DNA of 64,000 nt. Origin: Chloroflexota bacterium (GTDB lineage: Bacteria; Chloroflexota; UBA11872; VXOZ01). This document shows positions 5,563 through 16,017 of the stretch, in pieces; the first letter of the stretch is position 1, and every line of letters begins with the position of its first letter. The stretch is taken from the NCBI GenBank assembly GCA_963662335.2, contig CAXXVD010000003.1, positions 32,001 through 96,000 on the forward strand. The letters are read 5' to 3'. Under the pieces are notes generated by a model. The model was not told the origin of the DNA, did no database searches, and saw nothing but the letters and a program-made list of their open reading frames with translations. Made by a program: the position numbers and the translations under genes.

Positions 5563-5861
5563 GAGATCTTTGCATAATTCCGTCATTCCGGCGAAAGCCG
5601 GAATCCAGAGTCGTATTCACAGCCAAGAATAGCGGTTTTCAAGCGGTTTCACCCCCATCCCAACCTTCCCCCGTCGAGGGCTGACAGGGGTATGTAAATG
5701 TCATTTCGAGCGCAGCGAGGAATCTAGAGTTGCCGATTTTGCAGGGCCGCACCCTAGATTCCTCACTCCGCTGCGCTCCGTTCGGAATGACACGTGAAGC
5801 CAGTTATAGTGTACATACCCCTGTCAGCCCGTCGAGGGGGAAGGGGTAATGCAAAGGTCTC
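5563..5861. mobile_element. MITE A with IS5-like ends and a 5-bp target duplication
   Basis: TIRs GAGATCTTTGCATAA / TAATGCAAAGGTCTC; CTCAG duplicated at 5558-5562 and 5862-5866. Confidence 0.75.
5678..5830. mobile_element. MITE B nested inside MITE A
   Basis: Perfect 19-bp TIR GGGCTGACAGGGGTATGTA; GTCGA duplicated at 5673-5677 and 5831-5835; carries a CGTC-type REP doublet. Confidence 0.8.
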
Positions 5862-8110: not shown

Positions 8111-8354
8111 TCTGTGGATGTCGGCTAATTCGTTGACAGATTCGGTAGAAGAAACGGCGGATTCTGCGTCGTACATCCCTTTGCAGATGTCATTCCGAAC
8201 GGAGCGCAGCGCAGTGAGGAATCTAGGATTGATGCTGCACGCAGGCTAGTGGCCTCGGCACACTAGATTCCTCGCTGCGCTCGGAATGACATACGCTAGC
8301 AACGCTGCCGGGTGGACAGGAGATTCTGTCAGCGAATTAGGCAACATCCGCAGA
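8111..8354. mobile_element. MITE-like element D carrying a CGTC REP doublet
   Basis: About 30-bp imperfect IR (TCTGTGGATGTCGGCTAATTCGTTGACAGA) around GTCATTCCG...GGAATCT / AGATTCC...GGAATGAC. Confidence 0.6.
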
Positions 8355-10606: not shown

Positions 10607-10913
10607 GGGTGAATGCGCGCCGCAGCGGAGAGAGGAATCTAGAGCGCTGCGCCGTAGCACACGGCATCCTTGTAGAGGCTGTAGATTCCTCGCTGCGCTC
10701 GGAATGACAGACATGCGACGTACAGCAAGAACCGGTGAGCGCGCGCGGCAGTTGGCAGGACGGCAGGAGCCGCCGATGCCCGTCCGCGGCCAGGCAATGC
10801 TACTATACGGACTGTGCGCTGGCGCAACGGGCAAGGTTGATTGGCAGGGCCGCTTGCTGTGCGGCGGCGCACGCCTGGCAATGAAGTCACGCAGCATGAG
10901 GGAATAACGTCTT

Positions 10914-12261: not shown

Positions 12262-12744
12262 CTATAACAGGCCGGGTTGTTGAACGCGCGGCGCGCACAC
12301 CGTGATGCCCAGGTGTTCTGAATAGTTCCACAATGACTTGTCATACGTATGAACTTCGGCTGCGCGCATGAGTTGCGCGGTAGCAAGGTGGATGCAGTCG
12401 CTTGGGTCTCTCTTGAGGTTATTGGTCAGGCCAATCCGCATCACGTCGCGAGCGCGTCTTGCAATGAGTTGGCTAAACTCGACGAGTAGCACGACACGAT
12501 CGTCCTGGAAGATTGTATCTATTCTGCTTAATTCAGCATCATTGAGGGCTCGGTCTAGTCGCTCTTGCTCCGTAAAGGCGACCTCTGCAATAGAGAGTGT
12601 TGAGGTGACGATCTTTTGTTCTCCGTCGCTCCGTTCCACCTCACTAAGAATGCCTTGCAAAGTGCCGATTCGCTCAGACGACTCGTTGATGTAATAGGTG
12701 AAGCAGTTTGCGTCCCAATAAATGAATTCTGCAGAAGCCGGCAT
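12262..12744 (-). CDS. PIN-domain (VapC-like) ribonuclease toxin
   Basis: YWDANCF, STLSIAEV, DCIHLATA and TYD acidic motifs. Confidence 0.85.
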   Translation of the reverse strand: MPASAEFIYWDANCFTYYINESSERIGTLQGILSEVERSDGEQKIVTSTLSIAEVAFTEQERLDRALNDAELSRIDTIFQDDRVVLLVEFSQLIARRARDVMRIGLTNNLKRDPSDCIHLATAQLMRAAEVHTYDKSLWNYSEHLGITVCAPRVQQPGLL

Positions 12745-14102: not shown

Positions 14103-14289
14103 GGTCTATCCTTGCTCCAGCGTCAAACTCGCGTTCCCCCTCGCAAGTGTACCACAGTCGTTCGCTCTAAACCAGAAAGTCAATGCGCAGACAAGACTGG
14201 TTATGTCGTGCTGCCAGCGCGCGCTAAAGTGGGAGTGGGACACTTATGTATGAGAGTCGCCTGGTGTCACTTCGGCTTCGCAATCGGCT

Positions 14290-14706
14290 CGAGGTCTAGC
14301 GAAACTGCCTGTCATGGGAGCGGCTGAGCATGGCGGCAAGGTGAAAGCGGTACCATTCCTGTAGGTGATGGCGCGGCATATCAATACTTTCTTGAAGCGC
14401 AACGTGGATCCGCGCGCCATCCTCATGACCGACTACTGGCCGGGCTACAACGAAGTCAGAGACTGGATGCAGCGCTTTCGCGTGAATCACGGCACAGGCG
14501 GATTCGTTGACGGGGAAGTCCACACCAACACCACTGAGGGATTCTGGTCATTGGTGAAGCGCGCGGTTGCCGGCCAGCACCACCACTACACGGTCGAACA
14601 CGCGGCTATCTACATCCACGAAGCGGCTTACAGGTGAAAGACCCGCAAGTCGGACAGGCTGTTCAAGGACTTCATGCTGCGGGCTAGGGGACTACATATT
14701 GCGTAA
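14290..14706 (+). pseudogene. IS1595-family (ISXO2-like DDE) transposase remnant
   Basis: KLPVMGAAEHGGKV, MTDYWPGY, VNH and HTNTTEGFWSLVKR; in-frame stops at 14362 and 14635; N-terminus missing. Confidence 0.85.
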
Positions 14707-14741
14707 AAGCGGAGCGTCTACCGCAACATAGGCTTATGTCA

Positions 14742-14770
14742 TTGACTCGATGCATTCGCTTCTGTAGAAT
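14742..14770 (+). promoter_or_regulatory. sigma70-type promoter of the tRNA-like RNA
   Basis: TTGACT-N17-TAGAAT, followed by a hairpin at 14785-14824. Confidence 0.7.
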
Positions 14771-14828
14771 CTTGGGAGATAGGCGAACCCGCCTGTTCCT
14801 CGGTCAAAAGAAGCAGGCGGGTTCTGCT

Positions 14829-14926
14829 GGAAGGTATTGTCTGTCAGTACAGAACCAGCGCTAGGAACGCTCGGAGCGTCAGGGATATGTCCTGTCGTTG
14901 CGGTGCAACTCCGCTACCTTCCGCCA
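14829..14926 (+). tRNA. non-canonical 8/4 tRNA-Sec-like (allo-tRNA-type) RNA, anticodon AGG
   Basis: 8-bp acceptor GGAAGGTA/TACCTTCC then G-CCA; D stem TCTGT/ACAGA with 4-nt loop; anticodon stem AGCG/CGCT with loop CT-AGG-AA; long variable arm 14875-14899; 4-bp T stem GCGG/CCGC with loop TGCAACT. Confidence 0.75.
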
Positions 14927-14987
14927 CTTTCCGCAACCGCAAGTGTATACAGTGTAAACCGTGCTGACTCCATGCGTCAAATCGCCG

Positions 14988-15251
14988 CTATTCTGCCGGC
15001 GAATCAGTCTTTTCGCCTACGATTAGCAAGCTAGGCCGCCTGCCGCGAAAGCCAAACGTGATGCAGGTGAAGAGGAAATTGAAGAACTTCCTGGCGAGCG
15101 ACCACTTGTCCTCAGTGATGAAGACCAAGCGGTACCCGTCTTCATTGAGTCGTCTAATAGCGCGGTCTACGGCGCGCCCCTGGCTTTCACCGATATTGAG
15201 CCAGCCGCTCTTGAGTTCGACGCGCTCAGTGCGGTTGATTGGGTCGCTCAT
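14988..15251 (-). CDS. small hypothetical protein (87 aa) with a hydrophobic segment
   Basis: AAGGAGG RBS; FFNFLFTCITFGF stretch. Confidence 0.7.
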   Translation of the reverse strand: MSDPINRTERVELKSGWLNIGESQGRAVDRAIRRLNEDGYRLVFITEDKWSLARKFFNFLFTCITFGFRGRRPSLLIVGEKTDSPAE

Positions 15252-15392
15252 GGGTGCCTCCTTGCAGCACGCTAAAGGGTAGGTCTTGCTACAGCCCGAC
15301 GCCTAGAGTGGGCCGCAAGGAGACGTGGCAAACCACTATCCCCTTAGCGTCTCTTGTGAGACCCACAACTAGACCTATTCGGGCTGTAGCAC
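15252..15392 (-). ncRNA. structured 5' leader / C4-like antisense RNA candidate
   Basis: 13-bp perfect outer stem 15287-15299/15379-15391 plus inner stems; bulge and loop complementary to sequence just upstream of the RBS. Confidence 0.55.
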
Positions 15393-15397
15393 GTAGC

Positions 15398-15426
15398 ATC
15401 CTACCAAGCGCACAGAATCAAGGCAA
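15398..15426 (-). promoter_or_regulatory. sigma70-type promoter for the structured leader and 87-aa gene
   Basis: TTGCCT-N17-TAGGAT with TGn extension; predicted start at the hairpin base. Confidence 0.55.
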
Positions 15427-15430
15427 GTCG

Positions 15431-15685
15431 ATTTCCTATAATCCTCGACGCACCCTAGAACGAATCTTTACACGGCCCACGCCACCCGACATCAGGTGGG
15501 CCAATATTGAGAGCATGTTGGGTGCAGTAGGTGTGGAGGTCTCAGAGCGGGCGGGCTCGCGGGTGCTCTTGAAGAAGGGAGCGGAGCGTATCGTCGTTCA
15601 CAGACCGCATCCTCGTCCAGAGGCCGGCAAAGCTACGGTCCGCAATATCGCCCTGTTTCTCCGGGAGATAGGAGTAGTGCCATGA
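15431..15685 (+). pseudogene. hicA: HicA-family toxin, apparently lacking its native start
   Basis: RRTLERIF...IRW...GSRV...HRPHP; no ATG or RBS at the expected position. Confidence 0.65.
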
Positions 15686-16017
15686 TGGAGTATAGGGGTT
15701 ACCTAGCCACCGTCGAATACGATGACTCGGTGGGACTTCTGCACGGACAGGTCGTCAACGCCGGTCCCTATCCGATTGCCACGTTCGAGGCCGCCGACGT
15801 GGAGGGGCTGAAACGCGAATTCCGCATATCGATCGAAGAGTACTTAGCCTCGTGCGCGGAAGACGGGATCGAGCCGCGCAAACCGTTCTCCGGCAAGCTC
15901 ACGCTGCGGCTAGGAACCGAACTGCATCAGCGCGTGGCGGCCGCGGCGCTGCACAGCGGGCTGAGCATCAACGAGTGGATCAAGCAGGTGCTCGCGGAGA
16001 ACGCGCAGAGCGGGTAG
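15682..16017 (+). CDS. hicB: HicB-family antitoxin
   Basis: MEYRGY...YL..C...P.KPFSGKLTLRL..ELH; ATGA overlap with hicA. Confidence 0.9.
   Translation: MMEYRGYLATVEYDDSVGLLHGQVVNAGPYPIATFEAADVEGLKREFRISIEEYLASCAEDGIEPRKPFSGKLTLRLGTELHQRVAAAALHSGLSINEWIKQVLAENAQSG

Follow-up and report, generated by a model that had tools for sequence, protein, structure and literature searches.

A 64 000 nt stretch of the genome of a Chloroflexota bacterium (GenBank assembly GCA_963662335.2, contig CAXXVD010000003.1, positions 32 001–96 000; called the window here and numbered from its first letter) contains, at positions 14829–14926 of the forward strand, a real, conserved and structured RNA gene with predicted ends. 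This conclusion follows from its fold, from compensatory changes in a homologue carried by a congener (genome G015), from covariation across a wider family and from the match of a covariance model from which the gene itself had been left out. The gene very probably belongs to the (8/4) allo-tRNAs, a kind that has already been described. As set out by Mukai et al. (2017, Nucleic Acids Res 45:2776, PMC5389517), an allo-tRNA has an 8/4 or 9/3 acceptor branch and a long variable arm, together with a D arm closed by a tetraloop as in selenocysteine tRNA (tRNA-Sec), a longer anticodon stem, G73 or U73, and highly diverse non-Ser anticodons. The published allo-tRNAs were compared by description, while our models, R1 and R2, were built from sequences collected in this analysis.

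Structure of the gene

The gene is the following feature.

14829–14926, forward strand: probable (8/4) allo-tRNA gene with an AGG anticodon, the discriminator G73 and an encoded CCA (fold, leave-out covariance model, compensatory changes in G015, family covariation)

Its sequence reads GGAAGGUA-UUG-UCUGU-CAGU-ACAGA-A-CCAGCG-CUAGGAA-CGCU(C)GG-AGCG(U)CAGGG-AUAUG-UCCUG(U)CGUU-GCGG-UGCAACU-CCGC-UACCUUCC-G-CCA. The original prediction, made from the letters of the window, had described a cloverleaf at this place, and every structural detail that it listed was present. The acceptor stem (GGAAGGUA/UACCUUCC) has eight perfect pairs and is followed by G73 (the G at 14923) and the encoded CCA; the acceptor branch comes to 8 + 4 pairs in the minimum free energy (MFE) fold, with the same pairs in the alignment to the leave-out model. 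The D arm consists of a 5 bp stem (UCUGU/ACAGA), all five pairs of which covary across the family, and the tetraloop CAGU. The anticodon loop has 7 nt (C-U-A-G-G-A-A), the variable arm (AGCG-U-CAGGG/UCCUG-U-CGUU) nine pairs and one U·U mismatch, and the T arm a 4 bp stem (GCGG/CCGC) with the loop UGCAACU. This cloverleaf is the MFE fold of the 98 nt (−38.2 kcal/mol, z = −2.83, 1 of 200 shuffles as good). The structural traits of an (8/4) allo-tRNA were found, except that the anticodon stem reaches 6 bp only with a bulged C. The features and the covariance model agree with the original claim that this is a Sec-like 8/4 allo-tRNA whose anticodon is not one for Ser and which has a long variable arm and G73.

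Detection, homologues and covariation

ARAGORN called no tRNA gene in the 64 kb window, and Rfam gave no match in the window at its gathering thresholds and none to tRNA or tRNA-Sec at E ≤ 10. The gene had been expected to escape standard annotation, and both programs were indeed silent; a canonical 7/5 elongator tRNA was rejected on the same results. At E ≤ 10, the T arm (GGUGCAACUCC) gave rise to a Tymo_tRNA-like match in Rfam, which at 21.5 bits fell short of the gathering score of 40. Model R2 was built from 26 family members and excludes the window, G015, another congener (G005) and a second copy in the window's genome. When it was run on both strands of the window, its sole match was exactly 14829–14926 (67.8 bits, E = 4.6e-12), with a full-length alignment.

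Among 61 related genomes, that of the congener G015 contains a homologue that spans the tRNA interval alone (90% identity over 96 nt). In an ungapped comparison the two genes differ at 14 of 98 positions, six of which lie in stems and make up three pairs that keep or gain pairing (from the window to G015, acceptor A4:U to G:C, anticodon stem C:G to U:A and variable arm U·U to C:G). The remaining eight differences fall in the anticodon (AGG vs CAG), the variable loop and the 3′ tail (GCCA vs GCAG), while C32, U33, A37, A38 and the whole of the D and T loops are identical.

The wider family came from a pattern scan of one genome per species, which gave 24 loci in records titled Terriglobia or other Acidobacteriota and Dehalococcoidia or Chloroflexota, two of them coinciding with the congeners G005 and G015. 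With a MAFFT alignment of 26 sequences, RNAalifold predicted 21 pairs, 12 of which had changes on both sides, and acceptor pairs 4, 7 and 8 covary across the family. In an alignment of 36 sequences, which was fitted to the model and is thus biased toward its structure, 96.4% of cells were paired, compared with 38–57% when the partners were slid, and double-change cells numbered 134, compared with 34.6 in shuffles. The T stem was invariant in a sample that was partly picked by a pattern fixing the T stem. Homologues and their covariation had been proposed as a check on the gene, and compensatory changes were found in G015, with RNAalifold and in the 36-sequence alignment. In the rest of the genome (3.23 Mb, five contigs) there was no second DNA match, and the covariance model found one degenerate copy.

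Amino acid identity and decoding

The four long-arm tRNA-Ser genes of the host start with GGAG and have G73, and its tRNA-Sec likewise, while the three tRNA-Pro genes start with CGGGG and have A73; tRNA-Leu and the long-arm tRNA-Tyr also have A73. The candidate starts with GGAAGG and has G73 and a 10 bp variable arm. Since its G1-G2-A3 start and G73 match the tRNA-Ser and tRNA-Sec of the host and not its tRNA-Pro or tRNA-Leu, it appears to carry determinants of the Ser type and not of the Pro type. A bacterial tRNA-Pro was rejected, as the candidate has G1-C72, G73 and A37 and is Pro-like only at G35 and G36. The host has a single seryl-tRNA synthetase (SerRS) with an N-terminal tRNA-binding arm (PF02403, 100 bits; gene at G000:C4:63658-63978 and beyond, G000 being the window's genome), and SelA is encoded in the same genome.

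ARAGORN gave 51 tRNAs in the genome, including one dubious call, and because tRNA-Pro with GGG, CGG and UGG are among them the candidate is redundant for normal decoding. By a rough estimate from the long open reading frames (ORFs) of this genome (64.6% G+C), Pro is encoded least often by CCU (7.1% of its codons, 4.0 per 1000), and by CCC in 29.8% of cases (16.7 per 1000). In Escherichia coli, an orthogonal tRNA with AGG was described as reading CCU at 12.9% and CCC at 10.3%, with CCA and CCG hardly read, and in the same study most tRNAs with A34 escaped deamination (PMC11066159). The activity of the candidate would be low-level Pro-to-Ser missense decoding. The original prediction had proposed charging with Ser and mistranslation of Pro CCU codons; its first part is plausible from the acceptor start and G73, and the second, decoding at CCU or CCC, is a possible consequence of the anticodon.

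Promoter and leader hairpin

Two features precede the gene.

14742–14770, forward strand: sigma-70-type promoter-like site, TTGACT-17-TAGAAT (consensus scan, 10 of 12 positions)
14782–14828, forward strand: leader hairpin with a 13 bp core (14785–14797 paired with 14812–14824), then UGCU, directly preceding tRNA position +1

Both had been described upstream of the tRNA in the original prediction, and both were recovered, by consensus scan and by folding, respectively. Transcription is predicted to start at about 14777–14779. By consensus match only, the region 14300–15500 contains two promoter-like sites, compared with 0.5 expected. The predicted transcript, 14778–14926, folds with the hairpin and the cloverleaf both kept (z = −4.52, 0 of 200 shuffles as good).

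A comparable, near-perfect hairpin of 9–16 bp ends 5–17 nt before position +1 in 18 of 21 Chloroflexota sequences, as read by eye; those without it are L016, G005 and a 9/3 gene in the congener G010. Because the hairpin stems are unrelated in sequence across loci, it is apparently the structure of the leader that is conserved and not its sequence. The mean fold energy of the 60 nt upstream was −25.8 kcal/mol for the Chloroflexota allo-tRNAs, compared with −17.2 kcal/mol for 50 canonical tRNAs of the window's genome (Mann–Whitney p = 1e-5, with kin that are not independent), and −12.2 for 11 Acidobacteriota members. Many of the hairpins are preceded by an A/T-rich, −10-like box, and a U-rich tract follows in roughly half of the loci (tails read by eye). 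With the U-rich tail in only about half of the loci, the hairpin may or may not be an ordinary terminator; it may be a terminator-like attenuator or an insulator of a potentially harmful gene.

It had also been suggested that the leader could pair with the junction of the D and anticodon arms and so regulate folding. The 7 nt complementarity between GGTTCTG (14820–14826) and CAGAACC (14850–14856) is real, but regulated refolding through it was rejected, the pairing being absent from the G015 leader and from the predicted fold. On the reverse strand, a promoter-like TTGACG-18-TACACT (14980–14951, 9 of 12 positions) points into the tRNA and would yield an antisense RNA; the corresponding place in G015 reads, by eye, TTGACA-18-TAGAGT.

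The IS1595-family relic

The gene lies among remains of an insertion sequence (IS).

14299–14731, forward strand: IS1595-family transposase pseudogene fragment, C-terminal part only, with an in-frame TGA at 14635–14637
14988–15251, reverse strand: 87 aa ORF in the passenger region of the relic (ORF list; no Pfam family)
15249–15447, no strand given: right terminal segment of an IS1595-family element, with a terminal inverted repeat at about 15420–15447

The transposase fragment matches Pfam DDE_Tnp_IS1595 (14365–14637, 2e-18, profile positions 64–151 of 153) and has about 70–75% DNA identity to multi-copy transposase genes in congeners. Its N-terminal two-thirds are absent, as is the left inverted repeat of the element, which was looked for in the window and not found. 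The TGA falls at a Tyr of the intact 303 aa transposase of genome G002, and the frame runs on to 14731; we read it as a pseudogene lesion and not as recoding. At the other end, 15249–15448 has 81% identity to the terminal 200 bp of a 1606 bp element present in three copies in G002, where it has inverted repeats (CGGGAATTATAAGA...GACTTGAC) and target duplications of 6–7 bp. By eye, a short hydrophobic stretch of the 87 aa ORF resembles the small passenger ORF of this intact element, and in G008 DNA with a 73% match to the ORF lies next to a copy of the transposase. From 15445–15449 onward the window is again syntenic with its relatives, and within the genus about 14147–15447 is unmatched except for the transposase pieces, the G015 tRNA, the G008 match to the 87 aa ORF and 15249–15448. 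The promoter, hairpin and tRNA are probably a cassette carried as a passenger of this relic, between the transposase pseudogene and the right end.

Both ends of such an element were seen in G023, where perfect 23 bp inverted repeats (L075 56–78 and 2703–2725) flank a 322 aa transposase, an allo-tRNA-UGG together with its hairpin, and an N6/N4 DNA methylase; no clear target duplication was seen at this element, only TAA being shared. At 3 of 18 other Chloroflexota loci (G015, L025 and G023) the tRNA has an IS1595 transposase no more than about 600 nt away, and no IS inverted repeats were found beside the G015 and L025 tRNAs. The G015 copy is not syntenic with the window.

Two observations concern the methylase. 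At L074, L075 and L077 (G053, G023 and G088, from two families), the distance from the allo-tRNA to an N6/N4 DNA methylase gene is at most about 500 nt, and a segment of ~165 nt at the end of the G023 methylase gene has at least 15 copies in G053.

Distribution and anticodons

With model R1, allo-like genes, which scored well above the tRNA-Sec (about 42 bits) and tRNA-Ser (at most 40 bits) of the window's genome, were found in 4 of the 17 genomes of the genus, namely the window's genome, G015, G005 (degenerate) and G010 (9/3 type). In the class, 17 of 98 genomes match at threshold; on our reading 11 have an allo-like match, and the other six matched through tRNA-Sec or canonical tRNA-Ser. The allo-tRNA gene appears to be accessory. 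Among 83 distinct family sequences, a pattern-biased sample, the commonest anticodons were GCC (19), GUC (14) and GAG (7). AGG occurred once, in the window's gene, and A34 once more, as AAG in G045. The 21 Chloroflexota sequences comprise 15 with Leu anticodons, three with Pro anticodons (UGG twice and AGG once), one with GAU and two that are degenerate. A metagenome scan for the lineage-specific T arm (UGCAACU) gave no loci; with a general pattern it gave 55, none with AGG. Viral contigs gave one locus (L106), with two 8/4 tRNAs that have Ser anticodons and are unlike the window's gene. They lie adjacent at 451–628 on a 62 kb viral contig and have the anticodons CGA and GCU; a phage (8/4) tRNA-Ser was reportedly described in 2017, with which this locus is consistent.

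Several further loci of the family were seen. The second allo-tRNA-like gene of the window's genome (G000:C2:134630-134725, reverse strand; L038 1501–1596) is degenerate, with breaks in the T and anticodon stems, and scores 59.7 bits; upstream it has a perfect 14 bp hairpin and a U-rich tract, and it resembles the degenerate copy in G005. The gene in G010 (L047 1501–1589, reverse strand; G010:C16:9247-9335) is (9/3) allo-tRNA-like, has the loop CUUAGAC (anticodon UAG, Leu) and lies beside a C5 DNA methylase, so that both allo-tRNA architectures occur in the genus. In a record titled Candidatus Spongiisocius (L023 1499–1995, reverse strand), there are three tandem units of ~200 nt, in each of which an 8/4 allo-tRNA has its own hairpin and is accompanied by a conserved trailer (ACCGCAGTGTGTTAAAC...). 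Their anticodons are GAG, GAG and CAG, the third copy has acceptor mismatches, and the trailer motif resembles window positions 14940–14962. An apparent 8/4 tRNA follows the allo-tRNA at L019 (about 1545–1620; loop UUUGCAA, anticodon GCA, U73, Cys-like), and a further irregular tRNA lies downstream of the allo-tRNA at L028. The two recall the polycistrons of irregular tRNAs described in PMC5389517.

Neighbouring genes

By Pfam, the gene order before the tRNA is PIN (12262–12744, reverse strand), a 249 aa ORF and a 193 aa ORF without known family, and the DDE_Tnp_IS1595 fragment. After it come the 87 aa ORF (reverse strand), HicA and HicB (15239–16017) and rplT; the HicA domain begins at residue 87 of its ORF. 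The original prediction had considered a decoy or regulatory RNA for the neighbouring PIN/VapC and HicA nucleases. Of the 16 other genomes of the genus, 8 have the PIN block in the syntenic position, many have the 193 aa gene, and 10 show homology to hicAB that starts at 15445–15449; none of these PIN- or hicAB-bearing relatives has the tRNA there. Moreover, no toxin–antitoxin Pfam family was found within 1.5 kb of the 18 other Chloroflexota loci (76 ORFs scanned). The idea of an RNase decoy is unsupported because PIN and hicAB are conserved in relatives without the tRNA, and a partnership with PIN/VapC or HicAB was rejected on this synteny, on the probable arrival of the gene with an IS and on the 18 loci free of toxin–antitoxin families. 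The other neighbours at those loci are heterogeneous and include DNA methylases (five loci), HNH, GmrSD, a Cas3 C-terminal domain and a Pycsar-type TIR domain.

At L086 (2–1399, G053), the immediate neighbour of an allo-tRNA-GAG is a pyridoxal phosphate (PLP) enzyme that weakly matches SelA, Cys_Met_Meta_PP and Aminotran_5. This may be a coincidence; allo-tRNAs are said to be SelA substrates. Within the window, a palindromic 28-mer resembling a repetitive extragenic palindrome (TAGATTCCTCGCTGCGCTCGGAATGACA) occurs at 8264–8291 and 10682–10709, with related copies near 5579–5614 and 5694–5725. It has 151 exact occurrences in the 3.23 Mb genome and is also present in congeners.

Proposed explanation and alternatives

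Our preferred reading, which taken as a whole we hold only tentatively, is that the window contains a functional-looking (8/4) allo-tRNA, a passenger of a dead IS1595-family element, that acts as a Pro-to-Ser missense tRNA. An IS1595-family element with the allo-tRNA as passenger would have landed between the conserved 193 aa gene and hicAB. Transcription would start from TTGACT-N17-TAGAAT, a consensus match only, and the strong terminator-like hairpin at the start of the transcript would probably hold output low or insulate the gene. RNase P would cut the leader off at 14828/14829, the CCA being encoded. SerRS would serylate the RNA through the 10 bp variable arm, G73 and the pairs G1-C72, G2-C71 and A3-U70, which are shared with the tRNA-Ser of the host. 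With an unmodified A34, AGG would then read CCU and probably CCC, giving a low-level Pro-to-Ser missense tRNA. That the tRNA is actually charged and decoding in this cell we consider possible, though somewhat doubtful.

Several features weigh against this proposal. The anticodon stem, CCAGCG/CGCU-C-GG, reaches six pairs only with C44 bulged, a bulge shared with G015, whereas other family members have a clean 6 bp stem or a bulge on the 5′ side. Position 55 of the T loop is a G, and the D loop has A in place of its first G, which is present in 18 of the 19 other family sequences compared; together these would alter the G18–psi55 elbow contact of tRNA. A37 stands next to G36, while bacterial tRNAs that read CCN carry m1G37. 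The anticodon of G015, CAG, corresponds to the commonest Leu codon (41 per 1000, codon use being that of the window's genome), and efficient insertion of Ser there would be very harmful, which argues that the lineage is either tightly repressed or a poor decoder. The genome's second copy and the G005 copy have broken stems, so that long-term selection is not evident; the carrying IS is dead; and the promoter is a consensus match only, with a −10-like box abutting the hairpin in several relatives.

Some of these features would be expected if a tRNA-like RNA were made but did not decode, as an 'inactive' allo-tRNA. We regard this explanation as unlikely, though only slightly more so than our own, and likewise the roles that could go with it: the RNA might regulate an aminoacyl-tRNA synthetase, EF-Tu, a nuclease that targets tRNAs or a modification enzyme, or serve as a decoy for one of them, or its toxicity might be of benefit to the mobile element. 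The structure is under selection and yet the anticodon shifts freely between close relatives (AGG vs CAG at ~86–90% identity), the elbow (G55, D-loop A) and the bulged anticodon stem are unusual, and the CAG anticodon of G015 would be too harmful if decoding were efficient. According to PMC5389517, most allo-tRNA-UAU species were inactive in translation in E. coli, which also counts against decoding by the window's gene; two of the inactive variants killed the cells, and regulatory roles were suggested. On the other hand, the decoding architecture has been kept, with a 7 nt loop and C32, U33, A37 and A38 identical in G015, the CCA is part of the gene, and in its acceptor stem and discriminator the RNA agrees with the tRNA-Ser of the host; no partner protein recurs among the heterogeneous neighbours at the 18 loci, and the version with PIN or HicA as target is contradicted by synteny.

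A functionless hitch-hiker, that is, a cassette stranded in a decayed IS, silent or irrelevant and becoming a pseudogene, is in our view a little less probable again. It would account for the truncated transposase with its in-frame stop and missing left end, for the degenerate copies at C2:134630-134725 and in G005, and for a gene that is present in only 4 of 17 genomes and unneeded for decoding. Against it, the gene in the window has every stem pair unbroken and retains its promoter-like site (10 of 12), hairpin, G73 and CCA, and all the stem differences from G015 are compensatory, suggesting that selection acted at least until recently. The locus is also identical in contigs of four runs from one study (at most three samples), which match 14200–15600 without variants or joints, a weak argument as the runs may include the source. 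A chance fold, or the remnant of a canonical tRNA at an integration site, is effectively refuted and deserves next to no weight: the silence of ARAGORN and Rfam and the modest z score of the 98 nt alone would suit it, but the gene is full length with an acceptor stem closed by both ends, the leave-out model recovered its exact ends, homologues in two phyla have compensatory changes, there is no other DNA match in the genome, and with model R1 the candidate scores 77.9 bits, compared with about 42 for the genome's own tRNA-Sec and at most 40 for its own tRNA-Ser.

If the missense reading were extended, IS1595-family transposons of Chloroflexota, including lineages that are sponge-associated by their record titles, would mobilize promoter–hairpin–allo-tRNA cassettes that re-read Leu and Pro codons as Ser, with the hairpin gating expression. 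Such cassettes would be conditional devices for proteome-wide mistranslation, acting as addiction or abortive-infection toxins and not as housekeeping tRNAs. We consider this a speculative and rather improbable extension; a role in toxicity or defence would fit the restriction–modification and defence genes around several copies. Mobile allo-tRNAs might even re-read codons as selenocysteine, which is conceivable because the host also has SelA.

Significance

Only a few natural examples exist of cells with a tRNA that ought to violate the genetic code, and allo-tRNAs are one of them. A 2020 review calls their role in their hosts speculative (PMC7609411). With the kind itself known since 2017 (PMC5389517), the interest of this gene lies in its host phylum, which is new, in the mobile vehicle that was identified and in the leader, which is conserved. 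The family is extended to a phylum outside the hosts listed in PMC5389517 and PMC7609411. As a concrete vehicle, the IS1595-family element explains why the distribution in the genus is patchy and why allo-tRNAs had earlier been loosely associated with transposable elements, and the conserved leader hairpin may be the missing control element of a potentially toxic gene. The window and G015 provide a natural pair of intact genes, about 86–90% identical and with AGG and CAG, that is suited to asking whether anticodon switching is selected. Routine annotation misses such genes, and for genetic-code engineering the window's gene offers a further natural 8/4 scaffold with an unusual T loop.

Comparison with known systems

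The window's gene shares with the (8/4) allo-tRNAs of PMC5389517 the 8/4 branch, long variable arm, tetraloop D arm, G73 and non-serine anticodon. As described there, allo-tRNAs also escape standard tRNA finders, have degenerate copies and are linked to transposon-related genes, toxin–antitoxin systems, pseudogene copies and polycistrons of irregular tRNAs; the window's gene likewise escapes the finders, lies near a mobile element and toxin–antitoxin genes and has degenerate relatives, and the 9/3 form with a Leu anticodon is present in its genus as well (G010). It differs in its AGG anticodon with A34, seen once among the 83 distinct sequences collected here, in the T loop UGCAACU with G55 and in its location in an IS1595-family element, and the Chloroflexota members differ in having a conserved leader hairpin. 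The hosts given in PMC5389517 and the 2020 review PMC7609411 are Clostridia, Proteobacteria and Acidobacteria, whereas the records of the relatives found here are titled Chloroflexota or Dehalococcoidia. A full-text literature search for 'allo-tRNA' and 'Chloroflexi' returned the 2017 paper alone, which in the text concerned names that phylum for tRNA-Sec.

The closest experimental counterpart is the (8/4) allo-tRNA-GAG of Silvibacterium bohemicum, described as inserting Ser at CUC in E. coli and as toxic when induced (PMC5389517). It resembles the model proposed here in combining Ser identity with the sense anticodon of another amino acid, and differs in its GAG anticodon, a type also found in six Chloroflexota members; the experimental support is for the Silvibacterium RNA, and that of the window is known from sequence.

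IS1595-family elements with passengers, such as that of G002, resemble the relic in their DDE_Tnp_IS1595 transposase, terminal repeats of the type GGGAATTATA...CTTGAC, short duplications and, from the transposase to the right end, a passenger segment that varies. The relic differs in that its passenger is a tRNA-like gene with its own promoter-like site and in being one-ended. To our knowledge, as judged from one narrow literature search ('IS1595' with 'passenger gene'), an IS1595 element carrying a tRNA has not been reported.

Bacterial tRNA-Sec (selC) is alike in its 8 bp acceptor stem, long variable arm, long D stem with a 4 nt loop, G73 and, as predicted for the candidate, charging by SerRS. 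The genome has its own, separate tRNA-Sec with an 8/5 structure and the anticodon UCA; the candidate has a 4 bp T stem, with a 12 bp branch in place of 13 bp, and the sense anticodon AGG in place of UCA. The Ser-tRNA(CAG) of CUG-clade yeasts accepts serine and reads the codon of another amino acid, as is proposed for the candidate, SerRS ignoring the anticodon. That tRNA is eukaryotic and chromosomal, has a canonical 7/5 structure and serves a fixed reassignment, in contrast to the sporadic mobile gene of the window.

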